This document shows, in pieces, positions 367 through 58,671 of a stretch of DNA of 64,000 nucleotides. The stretch lies in the IMG/VR virus record IMGVR_UViG_3300019458_000025; one strand, written 5' to 3'. Below the pieces are notes generated by a model. It ran no database searches. It was not told the origin of the DNA and worked only from the letters and a program-made list of their open reading frames with translations. Position 1 is the first letter of the stretch, and each line of letters starts with the position of its first letter. The stretch is from an uncultured virus (IMG/VR IMGVR_UViG_3300019458_000025). Lineage: Duplodnaviria; Heunggongvirae; Uroviricota; Caudoviricetes. The position numbers were made by a program, and so were the translations under genes.

Positions 367-783
367 GCTTCGTTCGGGACGCTCCCGCTTGACTCGATGG
401 AGTGGTCCGTCAACGGCACGCTCTCGACCGGATCGGATTTCGACGGTTTCCGCCAGGCATGCCGCTTCGGGAGCATCGTCTGTGTGTTCATGAGCCTCGG
501 CGATTCCGGTTCCGCGGGAACGACGATCGCGGACGTCAACCTGGGCACGGGACCTGCCGATCCCACAGTCCCGTACACGGTTCTCCCGCAGACGATCTAC
601 ACGACGCAGGCGAATCGGCCGATGCTCGCCGCCCTCTCGAACACGAACCGGAACGTGCAGGGAAACAACCCGAACATCGTTTCGTTCAAGCCTGGAGACA
701 TCCTGAGCATGGATATTGACCAGATCGGTACCGGCGCAGCGGACCTCGTCGTCTCGGTCCTCGTGCGCTACACCGGAAACTAG
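1..783 (+). CDS. Collagen-like (G-X-Y) repeat protein with C-terminal globular domain, 5'-truncated; possible virion fibre or surface protein
   Basis: Frame 1 is open from base 1: (TGVQGQ)n repeats continue into the 397..783 ORF. Confidence 0.85.
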   Translation, partial: TGVQGVTGTQGQTGVQGQTGVQGQTGVQGQTGVQGQTGVQGQTGVQGQTGVQGQTGVQGVTGTQGQTGVQGQTGVQGQTGVQGQTGVQGQTGVQGQTGVQGQTGVQGQTGVQGQTGLQGATGASFGTLPLDSMEWSVNGTLSTGSDFDGFRQACRFGSIVCVFMSLGDSGSAGTTIADVNLGTGPADPTVPYTVLPQTIYTTQANRPMLAALSNTNRNVQGNNPNIVSFKPGDILSMDIDQIGTGAADLVVSVLVRYTGN

Positions 784-859
784 ATTCCCGAAGGAGGAAC
801 GGCCTCAGTCGAGTACGCCGACAATGGCCTGGAAGAGGAACGAAGAGGAGAATGGCAGA

Positions 860-3800
860 ATGGCTACACTTGGTCTGGCGATGATCGTCCGGAACGAGGA
901 GAAGACCCTCGGGCGCTGCCTCCAGAGCGTCCATGGGTGCTTCGACGAGGTCGTCATCGTCGATACGGGATCGACCGACCGGACGAAAGAGATCGCCATG
1001 TCCTTCGGGGCGATGGTCTTCGACTTCCAGTGGATCGACGACTTCGCCGCGGCACGGAACTTCTCCTTCTCGAAGGTCAATTCCGACTACGTCATGTGGC
1101 TGGACGCCGACGACGTCCTCAAGCCCGAAGACCGCGACCGCCTCCAGACGCTCCGCTACAACCTGGGCCAGGCCGACGCCTATCTCATGCTCTACAACTA
1201 CGCCCAGGACGAGTACGGCCAATCGACCGGGAGCTTCTATCGGCACCGAATCCTCAGGAACTCCAAGGAAGCCAGATGGAAGTACCCCATCCACGAATGC
1301 CTGATCTTCCCGCACCAGACCTGGAAGGAGGCGATGACCAACGTCGTGGTCACGCACATGAGGTCCGAGGCCGAACTCGTCCAGGACCATGGACGGAACC
1401 TCAAGCTCCTCCGGAAGGCGGCCGAGCAGTACCCCGACGATCAGCGGATGAAGTTCTATTTCGCCAAGGAACTGATCAACGACGGGAAGGCGGAGGAAGC
1501 CGTAAAGATCTTCGAGGAGTACCTCCAGAAGGGCGACTGGCACGAAAACCGCGTGAACGCGCTCCTCTTCCTCGCCATCGGCTACTGGAAGCTCGGCAAG
1601 GAAGACAAGGCGATCGAGACGTGCCTCAAGGGCATTCATTTCGACCCTCGTTGGGCCGAATACTACTGCACGATCGGGCAGATCTACTACAACCGCGGAG
1701 ACTGGCCGAAGGCCGCCCAATGGTTCGAGATGGCGGCGCTCTGCAAGCTCCCCGAATCGTGGGGTCTGACGCTCCGGGACAACTACACCTGGGTGCCGCA
1801 CGACCGGCTCTGCAAGTGCTACGCGGAGATGAAGGATTTCCGCCGCGCGTGCGCGGAGAACGAGAAAGCGCTCAAGTTCAGGCCGAACGATTCCCGGATG
1901 CTCTTCAACCGGGAGTACCTCAGGGATACGTTGTTTCCCGGGCGCCTGGCCGAGCGGCCCATCCGCCTCAGCTTGGGAGGAGGGGCAAAACCCGTCCAAA
2001 GCTACCGGAACTGCGACCTCTTCCCCGGGCAGGGGATCGAGGAAGCGTTCGACCAGTGCGAGATCCCGTACCGGGATGGGGTCGTCCACGCGATCTATAG
2101 CGAACACTCGCTGGAGCATGCTCCGAGCCACGAAGCCTCCCGCGCCACGATCGCGGAATGGGCCCGCGTACTCCGCCACAACGGGACGCTCACGCTCAAG
2201 GTTCCGGATCTCGATCTCTGCTGCGAGGCGTTCCTTCGCGAAGAGGACCGGGAAGCACGGGACGGAGAGACCTGGAGTCCGAAGGACTGGTATCGCTACA
2301 CCATCTACGGCATCCAGAAGCCTCAAGGCTCCGAACCGGCCGAAGGGCAATACCACCGGACCGGGTTCACGAAGAGCGAACTGCGTCGGCTGCTCTCCAA
2401 GAACGGATTCGAGATCCGGAACCTCAGGAACTACGACGGGTGGGGGACGCCCTCGATCGAGGTGCAGGCGGTCCGCAAGGGCGCTCCCATCAAGGTCCGT
2501 TGGCTCTTCTCGACGATCAACGAGGACGATCCTTCGTGCCGCATCCGGCGGATGAACGTCCACCGGTGGCTCAAGACCCAGGGCGTGGACAGCGTCGCCG
2601 TCACCGAGTACCGGGAAAAAGTGAAGAACGACGCGGGAATCGCCGCGCTGGTCCGGGAACTGAAGGACGCGGACGTCGTCGTCATGTGCCATTTCGGCGA
2701 GGGAGAGGCCAAGCTCATCGAGCGCCTTCGTCGCTGCGGCGTCTCCGTCGTCATGGACGGCTGCGAGGATCTGGACGGCTACGACTACCAGCGCGAATGC
2801 TTCCAGGCCGTGAGCGTCGTCGAGTGCTGCTCGACCGTCCTCGCCAAGAAGTTCGAGAAGTACGGCCGGACGCGGGTCATCCCGGACGCCTACGAGCTAC
2901 CGGCCGAACAGACCGGCCACAGCTACGAGGCCCACGGAAAGGACGGGAAGATCCGGGTGGTCTGGTGCGGGATGGGGGGGAACGCCGTTAATCTCGATCC
3001 GCTCCGTCCGATCATCCAGGAACTCGGGATGGAACTGGCCGTCATCTCCGAGTGGGACAACGCCGACATCAAGTGGAACCGGAAGACGTGGCTCAGGGAC
3101 CTCTCGAACGCCGACATCGTCCTCGCGCCCCAGCGTCCGTGGCTCCAGCCAGCCAAATCGAACAACAAGGTCACCCAGGCCCAGGCCCTCGGGATGCCGG
3201 TCGTCGCGTCTCCGCTTCAGGCGTACCGGGAGGCGATCGACCACGGGAAGACCGGTTTCATATGCGAGACCGTCGAGGACTGGAAGACCTACCTCACGAT
3301 GCTCCGCGACGACGCCTCGCTCCGGGAGAGGATCGGGCGCGCGGCCCAGGTCGAAGTCCGGAAAAAGTACGCGATCGACGTCATCGGGGCGCAATGGATC
3401 GAGCTTCTGGAATCGCTCTGCGAGGAAAACTGCGCGCCTCCCAAGGTGGATATCATCGTCCCGACCTACAACAACCTGAAGTACCTCAAGGAATGCGTCG
3501 CGTCCATCCGCAAGAACACCGACTGGCCGTACAACATCATCGTCGTCAATTCCGGCACCGACGAAACCGCAAAGTGGCTCCAGCGGCAGCCCGACGTCAT
3601 CTACTACAATTCCCCAGAGCGGCTCCATTTCTCGGAGGCCAACAATGTTGGCCTCCAGATCTCCAAAGAGCGCTACGTGTGCCTCTTGAACGACGACACG
3701 ATCGTCGGGAAGCACTGGCTCTCGGCGCTCATGCACGAGGCGATGAAGCCCGGCGTGGGCGCCGTGGGTCCCTTCTCGAACTGCGACCGCGGATGGCTCC

Positions 3801-5296
3801 ACGACGAGGCCGTGGTCGTCGGCGGCGTCAGTCTCGTTCCCGGGATGACGCTTGAAGATGTTGCCAGCGTCAAGGACAAGATCCAGGACTACGCCCACCC
3901 GAAATCCGTGCGCGAGCGGGATTGGGTGGCTTTCTACTGCACGCTCATCCCGAGGGAAGTCGTCGAGAAGGTCGGCATCCTCGACCAGGGGTTCAAGAGC
4001 GGCTGCGAGGATCTCGACTACTGCAAGCGGATCAAGACCCAGGGGTACCGGGTCGTCCAGACCTACGACTCCTGGGTCTTCCATTTCGGCGGCAAGACCC
4101 GGAAGAACACCGAGATCTCGGACTTCGTCCAGCACCACGAGGAGGATCGCGCGAACCACGCGCTCCTCAAGGCGAAGTACGAAAAGCCGATCTTCGTCCT
4201 CTACACGGGTCCCGCGTGGGAGCAGTGGAGCCCGAAGAGCGTGAACGAAGGAGGGATCGGGGGAAGCGAGACCTGCGCCGTCTACGTCGCCCGGGAATTC
4301 GCGAAGCGCGGCTACCGTTCGGTGGTCTTCTCCGACTGCGCCGGGCTCGAAGGCGAGTACGACGGCGTGGTCTACCAGGACTACCGGAAGTTCCAGGACT
4401 TCATCTCGCAGAACTACGCGGAGATCTTCGTGTCCTCCCGGATCGCCGGGGTTTTCGGGCTCCCGATCCGGGCCGGATACAAGATCTGCTGGGTCCACGA
4501 CATCTGGCTTTCGCAGGACCAGAACGCGGAGATCCACAAGAACCGCGTGGACAAGTTCTACGTGCTCTCGCCGTGGCACCTCGACTTCTTCTCGCGCCAT
4601 CACCGGGTCGGACGGGAGAAACTCCATGTGACGCGGGACGGGGTCGATCTCGACCGGTTCCGTGAGAAGCCGCCTCGGGAGAAGGGGCGGCTCATCTACT
4701 CCAGTTCCCCGGACCGCGGGCTCGACACGCTGCTTGAGGTCTTCCCGAGGATCAGGGCCGAGATCCCCGAGGCGTCGCTCCACGTCTTCTACGGGTTCGC
4801 CAACTGGGAGAAGGCGATCCGCGCTAGGAACGACCAGGGCCAGTTGGCCTGGATGGAGCGCTTGAAGGGCGCGCTCCAACAGCCGGGCGTCGTCTACCAC
4901 GACCGGGTTGGCCAGGCCCGGCTTGCCCAGGAGTTCCTGAAGTCGGAACTCTGGGCCTATCCGACCTGGTTCACCGAGACGTTCTGCATCACCGCGGCCG
5001 AAGCCATGGCCGCAGGGCTCCCGATCATCACGACGGATCTGGCGGCCCTTTCGACGACGGTCGGCGATACCGGCATCCTCCTCCCGGGGGATTGCCGATC
5101 GAAGGAATACAAGGACCGCTTCGTGGCCGAATGCGTCCTGATGCTCAAGGACCCGGATCGCTGGAAGGAATACTCGGAAAGGAGCCTCGCGCGCGTCAAG
5201 GAGTTCTCCTGGTCCACGTTCGCCGACGAATGGCTCCAGGCGATCGAGCAGGACAAGAAGCGCAAATCCCCCGGTAAGCTCGTGGAGGTCGCATGA
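860..5296 (+). CDS. Multi-domain glycosyltransferase (GT2-TPR, SAM methyltransferase, GT-B, GT2, GT-B)
   Basis: MIVRNEE..VDTGSTD..WLDADD, TPR-like helices, EHSLEH..LKVPD, IIVPTYN..LLNDD, SSPDRGL..ETFCITAAEAMAAG; GAGGAG RBS before ATG 860. Confidence 0.9.
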   Translation: MATLGLAMIVRNEEKTLGRCLQSVHGCFDEVVIVDTGSTDRTKEIAMSFGAMVFDFQWIDDFAAARNFSFSKVNSDYVMWLDADDVLKPEDRDRLQTLRYNLGQADAYLMLYNYAQDEYGQSTGSFYRHRILRNSKEARWKYPIHECLIFPHQTWKEAMTNVVVTHMRSEAELVQDHGRNLKLLRKAAEQYPDDQRMKFYFAKELINDGKAEEAVKIFEEYLQKGDWHENRVNALLFLAIGYWKLGKEDKAIETCLKGIHFDPRWAEYYCTIGQIYYNRGDWPKAAQWFEMAALCKLPESWGLTLRDNYTWVPHDRLCKCYAEMKDFRRACAENEKALKFRPNDSRMLFNREYLRDTLFPGRLAERPIRLSLGGGAKPVQSYRNCDLFPGQGIEEAFDQCEIPYRDGVVHAIYSEHSLEHAPSHEASRATIAEWARVLRHNGTLTLKVPDLDLCCEAFLREEDREARDGETWSPKDWYRYTIYGIQKPQGSEPAEGQYHRTGFTKSELRRLLSKNGFEIRNLRNYDGWGTPSIEVQAVRKGAPIKVRWLFSTINEDDPSCRIRRMNVHRWLKTQGVDSVAVTEYREKVKNDAGIAALVRELKDADVVVMCHFGEGEAKLIERLRRCGVSVVMDGCEDLDGYDYQRECFQAVSVVECCSTVLAKKFEKYGRTRVIPDAYELPAEQTGHSYEAHGKDGKIRVVWCGMGGNAVNLDPLRPIIQELGMELAVISEWDNADIKWNRKTWLRDLSNADIVLAPQRPWLQPAKSNNKVTQAQALGMPVVASPLQAYREAIDHGKTGFICETVEDWKTYLTMLRDDASLRERIGRAAQVEVRKKYAIDVIGAQWIELLESLCEENCAPPKVDIIVPTYNNLKYLKECVASIRKNTDWPYNIIVVNSGTDETAKWLQRQPDVIYYNSPERLHFSEANNVGLQISKERYVCLLNDDTIVGKHWLSALMHEAMKPGVGAVGPFSNCDRGWLHDEAVVVGGVSLVPGMTLEDVASVKDKIQDYAHPKSVRERDWVAFYCTLIPREVVEKVGILDQGFKSGCEDLDYCKRIKTQGYRVVQTYDSWVFHFGGKTRKNTEISDFVQHHEEDRANHALLKAKYEKPIFVLYTGPAWEQWSPKSVNEGGIGGSETCAVYVAREFAKRGYRSVVFSDCAGLEGEYDGVVYQDYRKFQDFISQNYAEIFVSSRIAGVFGLPIRAGYKICWVHDIWLSQDQNAEIHKNRVDKFYVLSPWHLDFFSRHHRVGREKLHVTRDGVDLDRFREKPPREKGRLIYSSSPDRGLDTLLEVFPRIRAEIPEASLHVFYGFANWEKAIRARNDQGQLAWMERLKGALQQPGVVYHDRVGQARLAQEFLKSELWAYPTWFTETFCITAAEAMAAGLPIITTDLAALSTTVGDTGILLPGDCRSKEYKDRFVAECVLMLKDPDRWKEYSERSLARVKEFSWSTFADEWLQAIEQDKKRKSPGKLVEVA

Positions 5297-9209: not shown

Positions 9210-10085
9210 ATGGTGATGCCGCGCTATATGGGGGCGGTCTTCCGGAGCCCTCGGACTGCGCGCCTGGAGCGCGATTACCGGGACATGGTCGCGCTCAGGA
9301 ACGACTCGACGATCCTGGACTTCGAGACGCGGGGTGATCCTCCCGAGGAATATCAGATCACCTTCCACGGGAAGACGCTGGTCAAGAACGGCGCCGTACG
9401 GATCGCCGACGTGCAGAAGCTCGCTCTCCGGCTCGGTGCCCAGTACCCCCTTCTCCGGCCGGATGTCCGCTGGATCACCCCCATCCACCATCCGAACATC
9501 TTTACCGGGACCGTCTGCCTGGGGCGCTTCTCCCAGGAATGGACCCCCGTGGTGAAGCTCGCGGATTTCGTCGAGATCCTGTGGGACATGGCGCGGCTTT
9601 CGATCCTGAACCCGCATAGCGCCGGTCCCGGCGCCGCGAAGGAGGATAAGTACTGGGCCGACCTCGACCGACAGTTCGGATTTCCCGTGGACAAGCGTCC
9701 CCTGCGGGACAAAGTGCTCCGGAGGGACGAGGGTTCGTCGATCCTTCGGCCGGAGGGCGCCCAGGACGACATCGTCATCATCGACGACGCGCCCGGCGTC
9801 TGCGGGCTTTCCGGATTGGAGGACGGAACGCCGCACTCATCGTACGCCTGGGAGACCACACCCGAAGATGTCCAGAACGTCCTCCGAGCCCACGGCATAC
9901 CGGTCGCCTATGACGAAGCCGAAAGAATCTCCTATGACCTCGACGATGAGGCCATCGCGAAGGCCGCGCTCTGGTATACGGAGATGGACGACCAGGCGGA
10001 TTCGGTGTACGACGAGATCGAGGACCAATTGAAGGAACTCGGCATGATCCCGGAGGGCTCGCCCAAGCGGTGGAGTGCGCCCTAG
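9210..10085 (+). CDS. Ubiquitin-conjugating enzyme E2 (UBC)-like domain plus acidic C-terminal domain ending in KRW motif
   Basis: YP..RPDVRWITPIHHPNIFTGTVCLG..WTP: HPN motif and catalytic Cys. Confidence 0.85.
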   Translation: MVMPRYMGAVFRSPRTARLERDYRDMVALRNDSTILDFETRGDPPEEYQITFHGKTLVKNGAVRIADVQKLALRLGAQYPLLRPDVRWITPIHHPNIFTGTVCLGRFSQEWTPVVKLADFVEILWDMARLSILNPHSAGPGAAKEDKYWADLDRQFGFPVDKRPLRDKVLRRDEGSSILRPEGAQDDIVIIDDAPGVCGLSGLEDGTPHSSYAWETTPEDVQNVLRAHGIPVAYDEAERISYDLDDEAIAKAALWYTEMDDQADSVYDEIEDQLKELGMIPEGSPKRWSAP

Positions 10086-10646: not shown

Positions 10647-10817
10647 CGGCAAAGCGTTTTTTCGTGAACCTTTTGGCGGACTTCTGTGTTTATGATTAGC
10701 TCGGGACAGTGAGGTCGGCCGGGCGTCTGCTACCGCGGGTCTTGAGTAGGGACTCCACGACTGAGGGGGTCAGCCAAGGAGGGCGCCCCGCAGGTCGCCT
10801 GAAAAGGCCCTTGGTCG

Positions 10818-10886
10818 CAGACGTGTTGAAGTGACGGGTTCCTTCTACTTGTAATAGAAAAGACCCGTCGCGACTATTGCCGTTTG
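10818..10886 (+). ncRNA. Y RNA-like gene 1 (Ro stem plus anticodon stem-loop UGU)
   Basis: GTGTTGAAG..GGTTCCTTC / CGACTATTGCC arms directly upstream of Ro60. Confidence 0.7.
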
Positions 10887-10914
10887 CGCCCTTCGGGGCG
10901 GAAGAGGAGAGCCC

Positions 10915-12666
10915 ATGGCCAAAGTCGGGTACACGAAGACCGACGCGGCGTCCCAGATGGCGGCCCACCCGGACGCGAAGACGAACCTCGCCGGAGGTCT
11001 CGCCTTCAACATCAACGACCCCTCGCAGAAGCTCCTCACGATGATCGGGGCCAGCTTCTTCGACGAGCCGACCTACTACAAGCCGTCTCCGGAGGACAAC
11101 AACGTCAACCGTCAGCCGGTCCTGGCCGGGCTCGCCAAGGAGGGCAAGGTCTCGGCCGAGCGCCTGAACGCGCTCACGGACCGCTCGCGCGAGGTCATCG
11201 AGACCGCGATCAAGGTCGCCAAGGGCGAGAACCCGCGCGACCTCCTCTCGCTCGCCCACTGGTGCCGGACGGAGATGAACATCCGGACGACCCCGCAGGT
11301 GCTTCTCGCGGTCGCCGCGGCCTGCCCGGAGACCCGGAAGTTCGTCCTGGAGTACGCCCCGAAGGTGATCCAGCGCGCGGACGAACTCCGCGACGTCTTC
11401 GCGATCTACAGCTACTTCTTCGGGCACCGGCTCCCGCACTCCCTCAAGAAGGGGCTCTCGAAGGCGTTCACGAAGTTCCGCGAGGCGGACTTCCTCAAGT
11501 ACGACGGCGTGGACCGGCCGACGCTCCGGGACGTCCTCCTCATGGTCGAGCGCGAGAAGGACTACCCGGTCTCGAAGGAGGTCTTCGAGTTCTTCGTGAA
11601 CGGCAAGGTGATCGACGAGGCGAAGACGCCGGTCATCGCCGCGCGGAAGAAGCTCTACCAGATGAAGAGCCTCGACGACGAGGCCAAGAAGCTCGCCAAG
11701 GCGAGCCACGCGAACTGGGAAGTCCTCCGCTCGCAGTTCGGGAAGGAGGTCTGGGCGTTCGCGGTCGAGGAGAAGCTCCTGGGCTACATGGCGACGCTCC
11801 GGAACCTCCGGAACATCCTGGAGGCCCAGGTCTCGAAGTCCGTCGTCAAGGCGGTCGCCGCCCGGCTGTCGGACCCGGAGGAGGTCAAGAAGTCGAAGCA
11901 GCTTCCGTTCCGGTTCTTCTCCGCCTACCGCGTCCTCGCCGGAGACGTCGAGAGCCGGTACGAGGTCGGCCGCGCGAAGGGCCGGATGCGCGAGATGGGC
12001 GAAGTCGATGAGGCGTCGGTCAACATCTTCCTGGACGCGATCGACAAGGCGCTCAAGATCTCGGCCGAGGCGCTCCCGAAGTTCCCGGGCGTGACCGCGA
12101 TCTTCGCCGACAACTCGGGCTCGATGTCGAGCCCGCTCTCGGAGAAGTCCACGCTCTCGGTCGCGGACGCCGCGAACATCCTCTGCGCGCTCAGCCTCTT
12201 CACCTGCGAGGAGACCGTGGTCGGCGCGTTCGGGACCGACGTCGCCGTCTGCCGCCTGTCCCAGGAGGACAAGATCCTCCGGAACATGGAGAAGATCGCC
12301 AAGGCCGACACCAAGGGCTGCTCGACCAACGGCTACCGGATCTTCGACTACCTCCGGGAGAAGAAGATCAAGGTGGACCGGGTGATCATGCTCTCGGACA
12401 TGCAGTGCTGGAACAGCACGCAGTCGGACCGGCAGTTCGCCCCGGCGTTCGTGGAGTACAAGCGTTCGGTGAACCCGGACGTCATCCTCCACTCGGTCGA
12501 TCTCCAGGGCCACGGCGACGCCGTGGTCCCGCCGGGCGAGCCCAAGGTGAACCTGGTGTCGGGGTTCAGCGAGAAGATCCTGGCGCGTCTCGCCGAGTTC
12601 GAGGGGATCGGGACCAAGGAGGACAAGCCGATCGCGACGCTCGATTACGTCCGGGCGAACTTCTAG
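10915..12666 (+). CDS. rsr: Ro60/TROVE-domain RNA-binding protein with C-terminal vWA (Rsr)
   Basis: TNLAGGLAF, FFDEPTYY, IQRADE, MATLRNLRN, KQLPFRFFSAY, DNSGSM, LSDMQ, GFSEK. Confidence 0.92.
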   Translation: MAKVGYTKTDAASQMAAHPDAKTNLAGGLAFNINDPSQKLLTMIGASFFDEPTYYKPSPEDNNVNRQPVLAGLAKEGKVSAERLNALTDRSREVIETAIKVAKGENPRDLLSLAHWCRTEMNIRTTPQVLLAVAAACPETRKFVLEYAPKVIQRADELRDVFAIYSYFFGHRLPHSLKKGLSKAFTKFREADFLKYDGVDRPTLRDVLLMVEREKDYPVSKEVFEFFVNGKVIDEAKTPVIAARKKLYQMKSLDDEAKKLAKASHANWEVLRSQFGKEVWAFAVEEKLLGYMATLRNLRNILEAQVSKSVVKAVAARLSDPEEVKKSKQLPFRFFSAYRVLAGDVESRYEVGRAKGRMREMGEVDEASVNIFLDAIDKALKISAEALPKFPGVTAIFADNSGSMSSPLSEKSTLSVADAANILCALSLFTCEETVVGAFGTDVAVCRLSQEDKILRNMEKIAKADTKGCSTNGYRIFDYLREKKIKVDRVIMLSDMQCWNSTQSDRQFAPAFVEYKRSVNPDVILHSVDLQGHGDAVVPPGEPKVNLVSGFSEKILARLAEFEGIGTKEDKPIATLDYVRANF

Positions 12667-12701: not shown

Positions 12702-12764
12702 GGCGCGGTGTTGAAGGGAAGGGTTACTTCGATTGAAGGTCTCTTCCCGCCCATTGCCCGTGCC
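12702..12764 (+). ncRNA. Y RNA-like gene 2 (minimal)
   Basis: GTGTTGAAGG..GGTTACTTC / CCGCCCATTGCC with pairing ends. Confidence 0.7.
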
Positions 12765-12771
12765 GAAAAAC

Positions 12772-13005
12772 TGGGGACGTGTTGAAGGAGTAGCGGGCTA
12801 CTTCTAACGATGAACGTCAAAGTCCGCATCCAGAGGTCGAAAGGACCCTCTCGATGAGCGGATGACGTTGTACCCTCCGAGGGGCAATTCGGCGCTACCG
12901 GCCACGATTGACCGGGAGAATCGCACTGGTCCGAGGCGAAGGCCAGAGAATCGTCCTTGCCCGAGTCGAAGACAAGGCTGCCCACTCCGACCATTGCCGC
13001 CCCCA
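12772..13005 (+). ncRNA. Y RNA-like gene 3 (long, multi-hairpin payload)
   Basis: TGGGGACGTGTTGAAGGAG..CTACTTC pairs with CTCCGACCATTGCCGCCCCCA. Confidence 0.65.
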
Positions 13006-14815: not shown

Positions 14816-15203
14816 GGGGCCGAACTGGTTTCGACCGGGCGTGAAGGTGGATGTGCTGCGTGCCGTGGATCACCGGTTGGCCACGATAAAAATCCGGTGA
14901 AAACCTAACTGCCAAGGACAACGTCCTTCAGTTCCGGAAGTCCGGGGCGCCCGCCTTCCGGGCTCTCGCGGCCTAAGCCGCGACGTCGAGCGGCGTGACG
15001 CCGATAGCGCAGCTTGACGTTAATACCTCGTGCTGGGCAGCCGGAAGAGTCCGGGAGAAGGCTGCCGAGATCAAGACCGGAACAGGGTTGAGGAAGCGTG
15101 GCGATGCGCGTCCGAAAACCCGAGATCAAACCACCGCCTACGCACGTAGATGCCTCCATGGGCTCGCCTTGGGACGAGGGTTCGATTCCCTCCGGCTCCA
15201 CCA
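14816..15203 (+). ncRNA. ssrA: tmRNA; tag AKDNVLQFRKSGAPAFRALAA (14911..14976)
   Basis: 5' GGGGCCGAACTGGTTTCGAC, 3' GGTTCGATTCCCTCCGGCTCCACCA, tag ending ALAA-stop. Confidence 0.95.
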
Positions 15204-16746: not shown

Positions 16747-17619
16747 TCAAGCGGGCCACGGACAGGTCGTCGCGTACGGCGCGAGCCTCCGGGCAACCTC
16801 CTCCATCGTCGGACGCTTGGCTGGGTCTTTCGCGAGCATCCGGCAGACAAGGTCGTCCACTTTCTTCGGAATCCGGACGTAGTAGGACGGCCGGACGGGC
16901 GCGACCGTGGAGACCTCCTCCTGGAGGACTTCGAAGGGCTTGTCCGGGACGAACGGAAGCCGACCGGTCAGCATCTCGTAGAGCATGACCCCGAGGGCGT
17001 AGACGTCGGTCGGCTCGTTCGTGTGCTTCCAGTAGCCGTGCATCTGTTCCGGGCTCATGTAGGCATCGGTCCCGGCGACCTCGCCCTTGTAATAGGGAGC
17101 CTTCCCGGCCTCGTAGGAGAGCCCGAAATCGAGGAGTATGAGCCCCTCGTCGGTTTCGAGGACGTTCTCGGGTTTCAGGTCCGCGTGGACGATCCCGCGG
17201 TCGTGGACGCGGGCGAGGATCTCCGCCAGGGTCTCGCCGACGCAGAGGCGTTCGGTAACGCTGAGATCCTCGCCGTCGAAGAGGATGGCGTCGAGGGGCC
17301 TGCCTTCCACGTACTCGGTGACGAAGTAGTCCTTGCCGCTTTCGATCAGGCCGGGAATGCCGGAAACGCCGATCAGTTCCCAGAGCGCCCCGGCCTCGCT
17401 CTGGAAGCCTTCCGCCGCGATCTTGTCGCGGGCGACTTTCGCGACGCCGACCTGGCGGGTGTCCTTGTCCTCGACCAGGTAGGCGGTCCCGAAGGCGCCT
17501 TCGCCCAGGGTCTTCCGGACGATGTAGCGTTCCCGGGCCTTCTCCCAGGTCTGGGCGGTCTTGGCTCCCGGCGGCGCGAGGAGTCCGAGACCGTACGGAC
17601 GGATCTCGCCGAGAGCCAT
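16747..17619 (-). CDS. Hanks-type Ser/Thr protein kinase
   Basis: LGEGAFG, VAK, HADLKPEN, DFG, YMSPEQ, DVYALG. Confidence 0.92.
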   Translation of the reverse strand: MALGEIRPYGLGLLAPPGAKTAQTWEKARERYIVRKTLGEGAFGTAYLVEDKDTRQVGVAKVARDKIAAEGFQSEAGALWELIGVSGIPGLIESGKDYFVTEYVEGRPLDAILFDGEDLSVTERLCVGETLAEILARVHDRGIVHADLKPENVLETDEGLILLDFGLSYEAGKAPYYKGEVAGTDAYMSPEQMHGYWKHTNEPTDVYALGVMLYEMLTGRLPFVPDKPFEVLQEEVSTVAPVRPSYYVRIPKKVDDLVCRMLAKDPAKRPTMEEVARRLAPYATTCPWPA

Positions 17620-27159: not shown

Positions 27160-27657
27160 ATGATGACCTGCGGGCAGTGCAAGAAGGCCCAGGCGACCGT
27201 CCACGTCACGTTGCGCGAGAACGGCAAGTACGTCGAGGGCCACTACTGCCCTCCTTGCGCGCAGAAGTCCGGCGCCTGCGACCTCAACGTGACCATGAGC
27301 GACATCATGGCCCAGACGGCGCCGAGACCGCGCCGAGCGTCCCATCACCAGATCCGGTGCCAGCGCTGCGGGATCAGCCTGGCCGACATCAAGAAGAAGA
27401 CCCGGATCGGCTGTTCCGAGGACTACAAGCTTTTCGAGCGCGACCTGGTCGAGTTCATGGATCAATACCACGGGTCGTCGCAGCACGCCGGGAAGGTCCC
27501 CGGGGTCGATCGGCGGACGCGGTTGGAAGCCGAACTCACGCGGCTCCAGGTGGAACTCGGAAAGATCGTCAAGCAGGAAAAATACGAGGACGCGGCGAAG
27601 ATCCGGGACCGCATCCGCCAGATCGAAGCAGATCTTGAGAAAAACGTGGGGTGTTGA
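27160..27657 (+). CDS. mcsA: McsA (protein-arginine kinase activator; CxxC motifs plus UVR domain)
   Basis: CGQC..ATVHVT..CPPCA..CQRCG..RIGCSEDY..HAGKVP..EKYEDAAKIRDRI. Confidence 0.88.
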   Translation: MMTCGQCKKAQATVHVTLRENGKYVEGHYCPPCAQKSGACDLNVTMSDIMAQTAPRPRRASHHQIRCQRCGISLADIKKKTRIGCSEDYKLFERDLVEFMDQYHGSSQHAGKVPGVDRRTRLEAELTRLQVELGKIVKQEKYEDAAKIRDRIRQIEADLEKNVGC

Positions 27658-27779
27658 AGGACAGGCATACTTCTAGGGACCTGGAAGTCCGGGTGCGAAT
27701 CCCGGCGTCGGCATACGGGCCGACGTGGCGTAAGAGCAGCGCGCCAGGAGTAAGGAGCCTATCCGCCTATTGCCCCCAC
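27646..27779 (+). ncRNA. Y RNA-like gene 4 (YrlA-type permuted tRNA domain)
   Basis: Conserved arms; T arm, loop-closed acceptor stem, D arm in that order. Confidence 0.75.
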
Positions 27780-27801: not shown

Positions 27802-28491
27802 GTGGAATACCTATACAATGCCACTGTGGTCCACCACGGTCTAAGGAAATCAAAGTTCTTCCTTTCTTCGAAGTACGATGGGAAAACTCGGCGCTGCGCC
27901 TGGGTGAACTGTGGTGCCTGCGGACGAAGATTCATTAAGCCGGTCGCGCGCATTCGTTCGCGCGTCGGATGTTCCATTCTATGCAGGGCTCGACTTCGCA
28001 GGACTTGCGTTACCAGAAAATGTCCTGTATGCAAAAAAGCCTTCCTTGCAAGGCCATCTAGGATTGCTCAGGCCAAAGGACCACTGTGCTGTAGTCGCAA
28101 TTGTCGGAGCACGGCACAACGCATAAACAGCGGTGTAATGGTCTCGCGACCGGAAAACTGGGGGAAAAGCGGCGGACGGTCTGAGGCGGCTAGAATACGC
28201 AAATCGTTTGGTCCTAAAGCTAAATGTGTTGCATGCGGGATAACCTTCAGACCAGTCTTGACACTTCACCATATAGATGGCGATGACCAAAACAATACGA
28301 AGTCAAACCTTGAAATCGTTTGCTGGCTTCATCACGCGATAAGGCACATGGTTCGGAAGGGTAAAACGTGGACATACAGCACAAAACACCTAACACCTAG
28401 AAGGCTTCTTCATAAACTGGAAAGGCTAGTGGCGACTACGAAATTGGGGGGCGTCGTCCAAAGGAAGGACGCCAGTTCGGCAGACTGGTAA
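27802..28491 (+). CDS. HNH endonuclease with Cys-rich repeats
   Basis: LTLHHIDGDDQNNTKSNLEIVCWLHH; AT-richer; overlaps tRNA-Ala. Confidence 0.8.
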   Translation: MEYLYNATVVHHGLRKSKFFLSSKYDGKTRRCAWVNCGACGRRFIKPVARIRSRVGCSILCRARLRRTCVTRKCPVCKKAFLARPSRIAQAKGPLCCSRNCRSTAQRINSGVMVSRPENWGKSGGRSEAARIRKSFGPKAKCVACGITFRPVLTLHHIDGDDQNNTKSNLEIVCWLHHAIRHMVRKGKTWTYSTKHLTPRRLLHKLERLVATTKLGGVVQRKDASSADW

Positions 28492-28520
28492 TGCGGGTTC
28501 GAGTCCCGCCGCTTCCACCA
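28447..28520 (+). tRNA. tRNA-Ala(GGC), C33
   Basis: G3:U70 pair, cloverleaf. Confidence 0.8.
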
Positions 28521-28538
28521 GAATTCCGAGGGCCTCTC

Positions 28539-29303
28539 GTGCGCGGATTCACGACCAAGGTCGAGCGAGCGGACGGCCCCCTCGTCTCCTGCATCATGGC
28601 GACCGGCCGGAGGCAGGACTACCTGGCCCAGGCCATCCGGTACTTCCTCAGGCAAAGCTACGAGCCGCGGGAGCTTCTCGTGATCGACGACGATCCGGAC
28701 TCCGCGGAATCCATCATTCCGAAGGACCCCCGCGTCCGGTACTACCGGGTCGATCCCATGACGATCGGCCGGAAGCTCAATTTCGGGATCGAGCGCGCCC
28801 GCGGCCGGATCATCCAGAAGCTGGACGACGACGACTGGTACCACCGGTGGTTCCTCTCGACCATGGTCGCGACGATGTCGGCCAAGGGATGGGAAGGCTC
28901 GATGGCCTCGACGAGCACGTTCCTCGTCCTCATCCTGGAAACGGGCGAACTCAAGCACGGGGGCCACACGCTGTTCGTCGGGGGCTCGCTCGCCTTCGAC
29001 CGGAAGCTCTGGGAGAAGGCGCCGTTCGAGGATCTGAGCGACGGAGAGGACGACCGGTTCATCGCCGCGCACGTCGGCGCGCCGAGACGTTACCTCATCG
29101 ACCCGGAGCTTTACGTGGTCGTCCGGCGTGGAGAAGGCCACACCTGGACCATGGCCGGGGGCCGGAACATCGACGAGCACTTCAAGCGGCAGCCGCGGTA
29201 CACGAAGTCCCTGGAGGAGATCGTGGGCGCGGAGGATGCCGCCTTCTATCGAATGAAGATCGAAGCGCGGCAGCGCGCGATCGGAAAACTTGTGGAGCGT
29301 TGA
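28539..29303 (+). CDS. Family 2 glycosyltransferase
   Basis: PLVSCIMAT..ELLVIDD..LDDDDWY. Confidence 0.85.
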   Translation: MRGFTTKVERADGPLVSCIMATGRRQDYLAQAIRYFLRQSYEPRELLVIDDDPDSAESIIPKDPRVRYYRVDPMTIGRKLNFGIERARGRIIQKLDDDDWYHRWFLSTMVATMSAKGWEGSMASTSTFLVLILETGELKHGGHTLFVGGSLAFDRKLWEKAPFEDLSDGEDDRFIAAHVGAPRRYLIDPELYVVVRRGEGHTWTMAGGRNIDEHFKRQPRYTKSLEEIVGAEDAAFYRMKIEARQRAIGKLVER

Positions 29304-29386
29304 AGGTCGGGGTTACTTCTGGAACGAACCGGGAAACCGGGGCGGTTTCGACACCGCCGGTCCTCGACCGCCTATGGCCTCCACAA
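29290..29386 (+). ncRNA. Y RNA-like gene 5
   Basis: GCGTTGAAGG..GGTTACTTC / CCGCCTATGGCC. Confidence 0.7.
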
Positions 29387-29392
29387 CAATCT

Positions 29393-29466
29393 TGTGGGGT
29401 GTTGAAGGGTTCGGATACTTCTGACTGCCTATCAGACCCGTTCCGTGCCTGCCTATCGCCCCCACA
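29393..29466 (+). ncRNA. Y RNA-like gene 6 (anticodon stem-loop GCC)
   Basis: Conserved arms; TCTGA-CTGCCTA-TCAGA. Confidence 0.7.
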
Positions 29467-29473
29467 TCAATCT

Positions 29474-29608
29474 TGCGGGGAGTTGAAGATCCGGGTTACT
29501 TCCTTACCACTTCAAGGACGTGGTGTAGCGGCGCACGCCGGGCTAGAAACCCGGAGGAAGACGTTCGACTCGTCTCGACCGTGACCTGTGTCGCCTATCG
29601 CCCCCGCA
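29474..29608 (+). ncRNA. Y RNA-like gene 7 (D arm, anticodon arm AGA, T arm)
   Basis: Conserved arms; CCGGG-CTAGAAA-CCCGG; GTTCGACTC. Confidence 0.7.
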
Positions 29609-29615
29609 TCAATCT

Positions 29616-29750
29616 TGTGAGGTGTTGAAGGTCAGGGTTACTTCCTCTTGAAAAGGAGAGGACCGGTTCGACTCCGGAAGGCGCCCGCAAGGGGGCCTTT
29701 AGTGTAACGGCAGCACGCTATGTTGACCTTGGCCGCCTATTGCCCTCACA
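29616..29750 (+). ncRNA. Y RNA-like gene 8 (permuted tRNA, anticodon-like loop TGA)
   Basis: Order anticodon arm, T arm, GCAA-closed acceptor, D arm. Confidence 0.75.
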
Positions 29751-29756
29751 AAACAT

Positions 29757-29888
29757 TCGGGGTGTTGAAGGGCTCCGTTACTTCCCTTACAAGGACGTGG
29801 TCCGGGTTCGAATCCCGGCGTCGGCCGCAAGGTCGATGTGGTGTAATGGCAGCACACGAACATGACGGTGTCCGCCTATTGCCCCCGA
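29757..29888 (+). ncRNA. Y RNA-like gene 9 (permuted tRNA, anticodon-like loop TAC)
   Basis: Same order as gene 8. Confidence 0.75.
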
Positions 29889-33712: not shown

Positions 33713-33790
33713 TGGCGGTGTTGAAGGATGGGGTTACTTCTATTCCCTCATTCGAGAGAACGAGAGTCCTCGTCCGACTATTGCCCGCCA
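33713..33790 (+). ncRNA. Y RNA-like gene 10
   Basis: GTGTTGAAGG..GGTTACTTC / CCGACTATTGCC. Confidence 0.7.
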
Positions 33791-45235: not shown

Positions 45236-45330
45236 GGGGACGGCTGAGGCGCTGGTGTGCCCCTCCGGCTTCAACCCGGGCGGGTCGGTCAAGGCCGACC
45301 GGTGGGTTCGATTCCCATCCGTTCCCGCCA
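45236..45330 (+). tRNA. selC: tRNA-Sec(TCA)
   Basis: 8-bp acceptor, long D stem, CT-TCA-AC loop, long V arm, GCCA. Confidence 0.85.
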
Positions 45331-57063: not shown

Positions 57064-57330
57064 GTCAACCACCCCGCCCTAAAGGGCGGGGCTTGTGAAA
57101 GGAGGTGTATCACAAGCCCACGTTGACCAGACTAAGCTCGAAGGATGTACAGCTTCGAGCTACGTTCGGCGGGTCATGACACCGGCGGATGCGTTGCCAG
57201 TCCGCCGCTCTGTCGTCCGGCATTAAAAGGCTGAGGGTGTAGGCCGGTGTGCCGGGCATGACAAGCCCGCCGAACATTGTCGAGGCGAACTTTACCCCGA
57301 AAGGGGCGGCCCCGTTATGGGGCATTTTTT
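57064..57330 (+). ncRNA. omegaRNA scaffold (HEARO-like) upstream of iscB
   Basis: GTTGACCAGACTAAG..CTACGTT..CCAGTCC..CTCTG..CATTGTCGAGG pattern. Confidence 0.75.
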
Positions 57331-58667
57331 GACGGAGTAGCGATGCAGCGGGTATTTGTTCTTGGCATGGATGGAAAGGCTCTCATGCCCTGTCGTCCAT
57401 CGAGAGCCAAGGAACTGCTCAAGGCCGGGAAAGCCGTTGTATTTCGTCGCTATCCGTTCACGCTCATCATGAAGAAGCAGACCGGGAAACAGGTTCAGCC
57501 GGTCGCCTTCAAGGTTGACCCGGGCAGCAAAATCACAGGCGGCGCGTTGGTGGCGGACTTCAAGCGCGGCAAGGAGGTCATATGGGCGGCTGAAATCGAG
57601 CACCGGGGACAGGCGGTCCGGGACAATCTTCTGTCGCGAAGGGCCTTGCGCCATGGGAGAAGGAACCGCAAGACGCGGTATCGGAAACAGAGATTCCTGA
57701 ATAGAACGCGCCCGGAAAGCTGGCTCCCTCCAAGCTTGAAGAGCCGGGTTTCAAACATCGCAACGTGGCTCTCGCGCCTCCGGCGCTGGAGTCCGATTTC
57801 ATCGGTTGCCATGGAACTGGTCAAGTTCGACACCCAGAAGATGAAAAACCCTGAAATTTCCGGCGTCGAGTACCAGCAAGGGACGCTCGCGGGATATGAG
57901 GTTCGCGAGTATCTCTTGGAGAAATGGGGTCGGAAATGCGCCTATTGCGGGGTCGAGAATGTCCCCTTAGAGGTGGAACATATTATTCCCAAGAGCCGGG
58001 GAGGTTCAAACGGGGTCTCAAATCTCGCGGTTTCCTGCGAGCCATGCAACAAGACGAAAGGAAATAGCACGGCGGCGGAATTCGGGCATCCCGATGTTCA
58101 GGCGAAGGCGGAAACGCCGCTCAAGGACGCCGCCGCCGTCAACGCAACCAGGTGGAGGCTGTTCGAGAGATTGAAGAAGGCCGGTCTGCCCGTTGAATGT
58201 GGAACGGGAGGCCGGACGAAGTTCAACCGTACGGTCCAAGGCTATCGAAAGGCGCATTGGACGGATGCCGCATGTGCCGGGGTGTCGGGGAGATTCGTAC
58301 GGCTTGACCCCCTCATGCTCCCCATTCTCATCAGAGCGGTTGGGCACGGAATCCGTCAGATGTGCGGCACGGACAGGTTCGGCTTTCCAAAGCGCCATCG
58401 GATGCGCCAGAAGTCCCACCATGGCTTTCAGACGGGCGATATAGTGCGCGCCGTGGTTCCGAACGGGAAAAGGAAAGGGACGCACATAGGCGTTGTTCTG
58501 TGTCGGGCCTCTGGAAGCTTTGATATTAAAACCAGGGGCGGACGCGCGGCGGGCATCAGTTACAGACATTGCGTGGTTGTTCAGCGGGCTGATGGATATT
58601 CGTATGCTGTAGGAGGCGGCGCTTCCTTCCCCGGCCTGAAGGCTGGGGCTTCCGCGCCGTCCATTTG
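57064..58667 (+). mobile_element. Non-autonomous IS200/IS605-family IscB element
   Basis: Left end GTCAACCACCCCGCCCTAAAGGGCGGGGCTTG; right-end hairpin CCCCGGCCTGAAGGCTGGGG; no tnpA inside. Confidence 0.88.
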
Positions 58668-58671
58668 GTGA
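57343..58671 (+). CDS. iscB: IscB RNA-guided endonuclease
   Basis: (P)LMP domain, RuvC-I VDPGSK, Arg-rich bridge helix, ELVKFD, HNH, HWTDAAC. Confidence 0.93.
   Translation: MQRVFVLGMDGKALMPCRPSRAKELLKAGKAVVFRRYPFTLIMKKQTGKQVQPVAFKVDPGSKITGGALVADFKRGKEVIWAAEIEHRGQAVRDNLLSRRALRHGRRNRKTRYRKQRFLNRTRPESWLPPSLKSRVSNIATWLSRLRRWSPISSVAMELVKFDTQKMKNPEISGVEYQQGTLAGYEVREYLLEKWGRKCAYCGVENVPLEVEHIIPKSRGGSNGVSNLAVSCEPCNKTKGNSTAAEFGHPDVQAKAETPLKDAAAVNATRWRLFERLKKAGLPVECGTGGRTKFNRTVQGYRKAHWTDAACAGVSGRFVRLDPLMLPILIRAVGHGIRQMCGTDRFGFPKRHRMRQKSHHGFQTGDIVRAVVPNGKRKGTHIGVVLCRASGSFDIKTRGGRAAGISYRHCVVVQRADGYSYAVGGGASFPGLKAGASAPSIW

Follow-up and report, generated by a model that had tools for sequence, protein, structure and literature searches.

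Why would a phage carry genes for Y RNAs whose predicted folds end in something that looks like the anticodon arm of a transfer RNA (tRNA)? This question is raised by a stretch of 64,000 nucleotides (nt) of DNA, referred to here as the window, from the uncultured virus of IMG/VR record IMGVR_UViG_3300019458_000025 (Caudoviricetes). Y RNAs tether the ring protein Ro60 to other proteins, and the window holds a Ro60 gene together with ten Y RNA-like genes, one of which was flagged by an earlier sequence-only reading for its anticodon-like stem-loop. To judge from their letters and predicted folds, these are very probably Y RNA-like genes of the YrlA lineage, with a head that resembles an anticodon arm. 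The fuller statement, that they are phage genes for YrlA-lineage Y RNAs whose heads keep the anticodon arm of a tRNA and act as decoys, is evenly balanced between true and false.

Y RNA-like Genes and Their Common Handle

The window is phage-like DNA, in which ARAGORN called 46 tRNA genes and one transfer-messenger RNA (tmRNA). Its Ro60 protein is encoded on a contig of 139,916 bases. The best relative of this protein from a cultured virus is just 30% identical, and 952 homologues were found. Ten Y RNA-like genes (c1 to c10), rather than six, were recognized through relaxed patterns and the reading of the sequence. They were scored with a covariance model (R1) that was built from 20 elements of other phages and contained no window sequence.

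10915..12666, plus strand: Ro60 orthologue, 583 amino acids (Pfam TROVE 9.9e-20, vWA_Ro60 2.3e-9).
10816..10888, plus strand: c1, the flagged gene, with the handle (P1, internal loop with GUUGAAG and CUAUUGCC, P2) and one apical hairpin; R1 20.4 bits, E 0.0037.
12702..12764, plus strand: c2, apical hairpin with a 4-nt loop, not anticodon-like; R1 20.3 bits.
12773..13003, plus strand: c3, long, with the same handle and an insert of about 165 nt; missed by R1 and the least certain copy.
27646..27779, plus strand: c4, of YrlA type, with a hairpin (6 base pairs (bp), tetraloop), T arm, sealed acceptor stem, and D arm; R1 33.4 bits, E 2e-6.
29292..29384, plus strand: c5, partial tRNA-like head, with no 7-nt loop after CUUC; R1 19.5 bits, fold z -1.28.
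29394..29465, plus strand: c6, handle and hairpin only; R1 19.1 bits, fold z -2.38.
29474..29608, plus strand: c7, handle around an unpermuted tRNA-like insert at 29514-29583; Rfam tRNA 41.2 bits, ARAGORN Ser(aga).
29615..29751, plus strand: c8, full permuted tRNA body with an anticodon-like arm, T arm, sealed acceptor stem, and D arm; R1 59.8 bits, E 5e-13, fold z -4.50.
29757..29888, plus strand: c9, full permuted tRNA body with an anticodon-like arm, 5-nt linker, T arm, sealed acceptor stem, and D arm; R1 53.3 bits, E 2e-11, fold z -1.93.
33713..33790, plus strand: c10, apical hairpin with a 4-nt loop, not anticodon-like; R1 20.0 bits.

R1 thus recovered c8, c9, and c4 with the highest scores, and c1, c2, c5, c6, and c10 at 19-20 bits (E 0.004-0.008), while c3 and c7 went undetected in its search of the window. 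The fold plan of each gene consists of a closing stem, an asymmetric internal loop with conserved letters, a second stem, and a variable head. The common 5' sequence is GUGUUGAAGG, followed after 6-8 nt by UUACUUC, and the common 3' sequence is CGCCUAUUGCCCC. The pattern GTTGAAG-N6-10-TWMCTTC has seven matches in the window, all on the plus strand, against an expectation of 0.01. The second stem of the handle varies in sequence among the copies, with its pairing preserved, and P2 covaries both among the window copies and in 20 homologues, eight of its nine pairs being compensatory. A candidate extension of P2, GUUAC/GUAC with a bulged U, was dropped, as it was not predicted by RNAalifold and is missing in several homologues.

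The predicted fold of c1 (-39 kcal/mol, z -4.36) was equalled by none of 200 shuffled sequences. Stability exceeds that of the shuffles clearly in c1 and c8 and modestly in c6 and c9, but not in c5 or c7, the whole-gene fold of the latter being no better than its shuffles (z -0.53). The head formed by a hairpin, T arm, sealed acceptor stem, and D arm, in this order, is found in three of the ten copies (c4, c8, and c9), and the other seven have other heads. The end of c1 lies 27 nt 5' of the Ro60 start, and c2 and c3 occupy the region 36-340 nt 3' of the Ro60 stop, whereas c4 to c10, on the same strand, are 15-21 kilobases (kb) away, within the tRNA array. Their identity as Y RNA-like genes linked to Ro60 is supported by the TROVE/vWA_Ro60 gene, the seven pattern matches, the R1 matches, and the strand bias of the motif in the relatives described below.

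Two further observations concern the surroundings of these genes. Immediately 5' of c1, positions 10690-10816 share 79% identity with the same place in the closest relative (locus L081, Ro60 77% identical), and are foldable, with 4 of 32 pairs compensated; this segment may represent a leader or another conserved RNA that is not translated. A glycosyltransferase-like open reading frame (28491-29303) has its stop codon (29301-29303) within the conserved GUUGAAG of c5, so that this gene overlaps the first Y RNA of the tandem array.

Hairpins Resembling the Anticodon Arm

The hairpins that raise the question are found in five of the ten genes, and all five are present as the sequence-only reading had described them.

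10843-10859, plus strand: c1 hairpin UUCUA-CUUGUAA-UAGAA, 5 bp, triplet UGU.
29420-29436, plus strand: c6 hairpin UCUGA-CUGCCUA-UCAGA, 5 bp, triplet GCC.
29538-29554, plus strand: c7 hairpin CCGGG-CUAGAAA-CCCGG, the anticodon arm of the tRNA-like insert, triplet AGA.
29642-29658, plus strand: c8 hairpin UUCCU-CUUGAAA-AGGAG, triplet UGA.
29783-29795 (29781-29797 in the register of its relatives), plus strand: c9 hairpin UCC-CUUACAA-GGA, triplet UAC.

A 7-nt CU..A loop stands directly after CUUC in four copies, inside a nested tRNA in one, and is absent in five. The claim that the hairpins mostly lie right after the conserved CUUC holds, then, for four of the five, and the exception, at 29538, is the arm of a nearly whole tRNA-like insert. 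This insert, in c7, is the only part of the ten genes to pass the cut-off of the Rfam tRNA model (41.2 bits against 29), and is called as tRNA-Ser(aga) by ARAGORN, with two mismatches in the acceptor stem and no CCA. In c9, the same model (RF00005) aligns the hairpin as an anticodon arm at 19.8 bits, under the cut-off, and the other copies are unmatched.

The 45 tRNAs of the window itself have U33 in 41 cases and a purine at position 37 in all 45. The stems of the hairpin arms differ from those of these tRNAs, which indicates that the arms are not copies of them. Given this, and the fact that the 5' half of the stem lies within a motif shared by the whole family, descent within the family is a better account of the arms than recent capture.

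Conservation of the Arm in Viral Relatives

A search with DNA from both regions of interest recovered no match among 50,697 phage records, and a scan of viral contigs with the single Ro60 protein found no relative, although relatives were then detected by a profile scan. The profile (A1) was derived from 29 Ro60 proteins, and the best 80 of the 294 viral relatives were used as loci (694 kb). The exact motifs of the window are absent from the other loci, which share only the shorter GTTACTTC, found 134 times on the Ro60 strand and six times on the opposite strand, against an expectation of 10.6.

These loci provided 125 non-redundant elements, including the ten of the window, of which 57 have a T-arm motif 12-45 nt after CUUC and 68 do not. 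A stem of at least 5 bp from CUUC, closed by a 7-nt loop, is found in 22 of the 57 elements with a T arm, in comparison with 2.8 in shuffled sequences, and each of the other loop sizes from 3 to 10 nt occurs in one to four of these elements. In the 68 elements without a T arm, ten such hairpins were found, against 1.9 expected. Minimum-energy folds of the region from CUUC to the T stem were too noisy for the assignment of loop classes, and were replaced by register counts. Counted from the C of UAC, the T stem lies 23 nt away in 26 of the 57 elements, and 21-22 nt away in 17 more; in a tRNA, positions 26 to 48 span 23 nt.

A second count was anchored on the T arm, and required an arm with at least four of its five pairs, a 7-nt loop, and a 5-nt linker, in 67 viral and window elements collected with a wider motif net. 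This canonical arm, which has the geometry of a tRNA, is present in 27 of the 67, and any other combination of linker and loop reaches at most nine, except for one shifted reading of the same hairpin (22). The canonical arms have C32 in 21, U33 in 23, a purine at position 37 in 27, and A38 in 25 of the 27 cases, with 14 different triplets, the commonest being GUU (6), UGU (5), and GCU (3). In a smaller tally, G36 is followed by G37 in five of six arms, a bias that is also seen in the tRNAs of the window (7/8). The loop length, C32, U33, purine 37, A38, and the 5-nt linker are all kept across Ro60 proteins that are 27-43% identical to that of the window. The tRNA-like values of the stem length, the length and composition of the loop, the 5-nt linker, and the 23-nt span indicate that the handle leaves the tRNA body between positions 26 and 27.

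The hairpin is also supported by the pattern of substitutions. Across 45 aligned elements, pairing is seen in 72% of the cells of the arm and in 96% of those of the T helix, and the two variable pairs of the arm have changed on both sides, in a compensatory manner, in 8 and 16 of the 45 sequences. When applied to 20 full-length elements, RNAalifold predicted, unprompted, the handle, the hairpin with its 7-nt loop, the T arm, and the acceptor stem, with compensatory change in 17 of the 24 pairs of the consensus. The part of R1 that runs from the hairpin to the T arm also matches true tRNAs of the window, and the hairpin of one relative is likewise placed at the anticodon arm when aligned to the Rfam tRNA model. 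The c1 orthologue of the closest relative (L081) keeps the handle, with P1 and P2 covarying, and a more distant relative (L082) has the hairpin of 5 bp and a 7-nt loop, AUUGAAA, upstream of the T arm.

The expectation that homologues would retain U33 and a 7-nt loop while the anticodon varies is therefore borne out in part. It holds for the 27 of 67 elements with the canonical arm, a large minority, and for near-identical phage orthologues; the remaining 40 lack this arm.

Some individual relatives deserve mention. Unannotated arrays of the same Y RNA-like genes stand beside a Ro-like gene in the Streptomyces phage GiJojo (L083) and the Gordonia phage Rabbitrun (L084), and the annotated tRNA-Arg(cct) of GiJojo (record positions 9796-9870) overlaps a Y RNA-like element, and looks like a mis-call. 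At L053:875, the handle surrounds a whole tRNA ending in ACCA, while the elements at L022:855 and L023:3769 have an anticodon arm, a T arm, and the 3' strand of an acceptor stem with CCA, which resembles the 3' half of a tRNA set on a Y RNA handle.

Bacterial Chromosomal Relatives

The same approach was extended to 80 loci from bacterial genomes, mostly Bacteroidota, in which the motif is found 113 times on the Ro60 strand and ten times on the opposite strand. A strict first count showed no excess of 7-nt loops (4/70, with 3.1 expected), because the demand for contiguous pairs missed arms with one mismatch. In the T-arm-anchored count, which allows one mismatch, the canonical arm is present in 24 of 93 bacterial elements, and is again the sole peak. 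Thirteen of these 24 arms belong to one orthologue group, with the loop CUCAU(U/C)A and a pyrimidine at position 37. This loop, with its methionine-like triplet, is invariant in one paralogue per genome of Chryseobacterium and its relatives (L128-L172).

Exchange of the Triplet between Close Orthologues

The behavior of the triplet was compared in pairs of elements from different loci with a handle and body at least 85% identical. In 46 bacterial pairs, there are no changes at positions 34-36, whereas in ten viral pairs, 12 of 30 sites differ at these positions, against 89 of 1180 elsewhere. The viral pairs represent five independent orthologue groups, in three of which the triplet or the distal arm has been exchanged.

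In the first of these (group A), the alleles are GGU, UCU, and UAU, in RNAs that are 93% alike and identical in the remainder of the arm, and positions 34-35 differ in all three. In the second (group B, L060 and L072), the RNAs are 95% identical over 161 columns, and of the 15 positions that differ, seven are concentrated within 11 nt, those of the distal arm, where GA-CUUGUAA-UC is replaced by UG-CUAGGGA-CA, with both stem pairs compensated. In group C, GCU stands against UCC. The faster change of the triplet is thus a signal, seen in only three of the five viral groups, and it is treated as such, rather than as a measurement, because the sample is small and comes from few environments.

Relation to Known Y RNAs and Permuted tRNAs

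Chen et al. (2014; PMC4201824) reported YrlA RNAs beside Ro60 in 254 bacteria and in 22 phages. These RNAs have, near the 5' end, a GNCGAAN0-1G motif that is proposed to contact Ro60, and also a YUAY that opens the variable region, near-invariant T and D stem-loops, and a closed acceptor stem. The genes of the window are like this family (RF02553; PMC4201824) in their location beside a Ro60 gene on the same strand, c1 to c3 falling within the distance of about 4 kb that is expected of YrlA, in a purine-rich 5' candidate Ro60 motif in the internal loop, in the YUAY, and in the order of the T arm, sealed acceptor stem, and D arm. They differ from it in the motif itself, which is GUUGAAG in all ten copies, with a U for the published C, while the relatives have GUGUAG, GCGUAG, or AUUGCAG. 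The YUAY is UUAC or CUAC in seven of the ten copies, AUAC in c4 and c6, and UUCC in c1.

There are two other differences. In the RF02553 consensus, the handle is followed by the T arm with no intervening hairpin, at a place where a 17-nt arm with the features of an anticodon loop is found here, and the window has ten copies, seven of which lie 15-21 kb from the Ro60 gene, in a tRNA array. Elements of related phages match RF02553 over its full length at 31-44 bits, with a maximum of 43.8 in five related records, under the cut-off of 69, and no match was found in the window at this gathering threshold (69 bits), nor at E values of up to 10 in the three stretches that contain c1 and c4 to c9. As the Rfam score test failed in the window, the genes are filed as a variant of YrlA rather than as members of the family.

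The head of the Salmonella Typhimurium YrlA, known from a crystal structure (Wang et al. 2018, 10.1101/312249), is likewise L-shaped and mimics a tRNA whose acceptor end is sealed, and it is attached to the Ro60-binding stem. Its anticodon loop is reported as absent and the handle as a continuation of the anticodon stem, whereas here the arm is complete and the handle exits after the D arm and ahead of the anticodon arm. In Yrn1 of Deinococcus radiodurans, a stem of 5 bp has been noted as part of a possible anticodon arm (PMC4201824), but its loop has 6 nt, the order of the arms differs, and the sections of the paper at hand describe no variation of the triplet. Yrl1 and Yrl2 of the Thermus phage phiLo (PMC12135203) are also encoded by a phage, beside its Ro60 gene, and bind Ro60, although they are stem-bulge-stem RNAs with a CGAA motif, and the accessible text of that source mentions no tRNA-like head or anticodon arm.

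The circularly permuted tRNA genes of red algae and one archaeon also place the T arm before the D arm, and their acceptor end is initially closed by a loop (10.1101/312249). Those tRNAs are matured by a splicing endonuclease and a ligase, according to the same source. The sequence-only reading had held that none of the copies can be aminoacylated, their acceptor ends being closed or absent, and this claim is not established, given that the YrlA of M. smegmatis is opened by RNase P and receives CCA (PMC4201824). In the literature consulted, which leaves out the supplements of PMC4201824, where V stem-loops are possibly shown, neither the reading of the YrlA variable (V) stem-loop as an anticodon arm nor the turnover of its triplet is described.

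What the Heads May Present

The mechanism that best accommodates these findings would begin with Y RNAs of the YrlA lineage, in which a conserved stem and its internal loop bind Ro60 while the head resembles a tRNA. In this phage and many others, this head would consist of a 5-bp stem and a 7-nt loop with C32, U33, purine 37, and A38, followed by the 5-nt variable loop and the T arm. The handle would be attached to the tRNA body at positions 26/27, after the D arm and ahead of the anticodon arm, rather than through an opened anticodon loop as in the YrlA of Salmonella, and the short copies, c1 and c6, would display the anticodon arm alone. Ro60 would hold the handle, which would leave the head on offer to proteins that read anticodon loops.

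The most likely role of a head of this kind, proposed here tentatively, would be that of a competitive ligand, or decoy, for enzymes with which the host cleaves or modifies particular tRNAs in the course of infection. Such a role would explain the exchange of the triplet between closely related phages, and the combination of turnover in the phages with frozen triplets in the chromosomes is best fitted by a ligand for anticodon-specific host factors. There are precedents for parts of this idea. In Salmonella, tRNAs cleaved within the anticodon loop turn on the operon, and the YrlA head has been suggested as a competitive inhibitor of the nuclease (PMC7790460), while a proposal has also been made that phages use their tRNAs against the anticodon nucleases of the host (PMC10264068). 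The AriB nuclease of the PARIS system targets Lys(UUU), Thr(UGU), and Asn(GUU) (PMC12409363), and GUU (6/27) and UGU (5/27), the commonest viral triplets, are shared with it, which is regarded as a coincidence rather than as evidence.

An extension of the decoy reading, in which the Ro60-displayed tRNA body or bare stem-loop is exchangeable, its triplet being swapped to match the host tRNA targeted by the local anticodon nuclease or tRNA-modifying defense, would make the ten genes a panel of baits that complements the 46 tRNA genes. This version is considered rather doubtful.

A number of observations weigh against the reading of the heads as anticodon arms, or against their use as decoys. Half of the window copies (those at 12702, 12773, 27646, 29292, and 33713) have no 7-nt CU..A loop, and the c1 orthologue in the closest relative, L081, has a different head, without the hairpin of 5 bp and a 7-nt loop. 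Both facts count against the interpretation of the sequence-only reading, which is otherwise supported in part. The canonical arm is missing in 40 of the 67 viral elements and 69 of the 93 bacterial elements, and the elements were gathered by motif, which may have biased the set.

Of the five hairpins themselves, that of c6 has U rather than a purine at position 37, that of c8 is predicted at minimum energy with a 7-bp stem and a 6-nt loop in preference to the anticodon-like form, and that of c9 has just three contiguous pairs, or four of five in the register of its relatives. Two of the five viral orthologue groups are unchanged in their triplet, the signal of fast change coming from the other three, and chromosomes of the Chryseobacterium type show an unvarying triplet with a pyrimidine at position 37. 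In the 64 kb, no RNA ligase, kinase-phosphatase, or known counter-gene to a tRNA nuclease was seen, and RtcB is present in just one of five related phage records.

Two serious rivals to the decoy role are found in a relic without function and in a scaffold for general tRNA enzymes. The first of these, a possibility that is somewhat on the improbable side, is that the hairpin is the known V stem-loop of YrlA, or a leftover from its tRNA ancestry, which aids folding and has no reader specific for the anticodon. The hairpin does occupy the published position of the V stem-loop, directly after the UUAC that represents the YUAY, as the order of the helices around the junction (D arm, handle, hairpin, T arm) confirms, and the many copies without a hairpin or with tetraloops, like its loss in the c1 orthologue, are what such a relic would lead one to expect. 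Leftover anticodon arms are also predicted by the model, cited in 10.1101/312249, in which YrlA arose from a dimeric tRNA transcript. A relic is harder to reconcile with the retention of the loop features and the linker across divergent Ro60 proteins while positions 34-36 vary, with the compensatory changes in the stem and the swapping of the distal arm in RNAs that are otherwise 95% identical, or with arms that were not copied from the tRNAs of the window.

In the scaffold explanation, which appears unlikely, the RNAs bring RNase P, the CCA-adding enzyme, a ligase, and PNPase to Ro60, and the arm merely completes the shape of the tRNA, with no decoy involved. YrlA is indeed a substrate for RNase P as well as for the modifying enzymes TruB and DusA (PMC4201824), host PNPase is found in a complex with a phage Ro60 and its Y RNA-like RNAs (PMC12135203), and cellular rsr genes adjoin rtcB (10.1101/312249; PMC7790460). 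A scaffold, however, provides no reason for the rapid change of the triplet between close phages, and fits poorly with the short copies, c1 and c6, which lack the tRNA elbow, and with the scarcity of RtcB in the related phage records.

It is very unlikely that some copies, in nested, split, or circularly permuted form, give rise to working tRNAs, with the handle as a processing signal. The unpermuted insert of c7, the whole tRNA with ACCA in L053, and the acceptor 3' strands with CCA in L022 and L023 are in keeping with this view, but the c7 insert is mismatched at two places in its acceptor stem and lacks a CCA, and A34 triplets, such as AGA and AGG, are unusual in bacterial decoding. The processing of YrlA towards a canonical tRNA has been raised in 10.1101/312249. 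The permuted copies would require a cut and ligation between positions 26 and 27, for which the available part of the same source reports no bacterial enzyme. The explanation already disfavored is that short hairpins in repeated genes resemble anticodon arms by chance, for even though the copies within a genome are paralogues that may have inherited their CU..AA loops together, and three of the six folds tested are not clearly above the shuffles (z -0.53, -1.28, and -1.93), a single loop length and a single linker length are enriched in two independent collections (27/67 and 24/93), and the shuffles gave 2.8 hairpins where 22 were observed, which makes chance extremely improbable.

Other Features of the Window

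The window contains 41 Rfam matches at the gathering threshold, including 38 tRNAs, a tRNA-Sec, the tmRNA, and a HEARO RNA. The selenocysteine tRNA (45236-45330; Rfam 65.6 bits, cut-off 47) is also called by ARAGORN as SeC, and the phage has its own tmRNA (14816-15203), with the tag AKDNVLQFRKSGAPAFRALAA. The HEARO RNA (164.5 bits) partially overlaps, at 57277-57295, the protein with RRXRR and HNH domains that follows it (Pfam 7.4e-69), and the two, at 57064-58671, form a unit of the IscB type of RNA-guided nuclease within the phage.

Other cargo is also out of the ordinary for a phage. It includes a protein similar to ubiquitin-conjugating enzymes (9210-10085; UQ_con, 6.6e-9), a Ser/Thr protein kinase on the minus strand (16750-17619; 2.5e-36), and a multi-glycosyltransferase of 1526 amino acids with TPR repeats (716-5296).

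Implications

In the published view, as far as the available parts of these sources go, YrlA has no anticodon loop and its partner reads the elbow of the tRNA, and the identity of the partner that binds the head has been a question since 2014. A widespread subclass with a complete arm, in which the triplet is variable in phages and fixed in bacterial chromosomes, points instead to partners that read the anticodon. The finding also has a consequence for annotation, as some of these elements are called as tRNA genes by tRNA finders, the Ser(aga) of the window and the tRNA-Arg(cct) of the Streptomyces phage GiJojo being examples. The existence of cultured actinophages with the same unannotated arrays makes the idea directly testable, and the subclass with the anticodon arm would link Ro60 particles to the phage defenses that target tRNAs.

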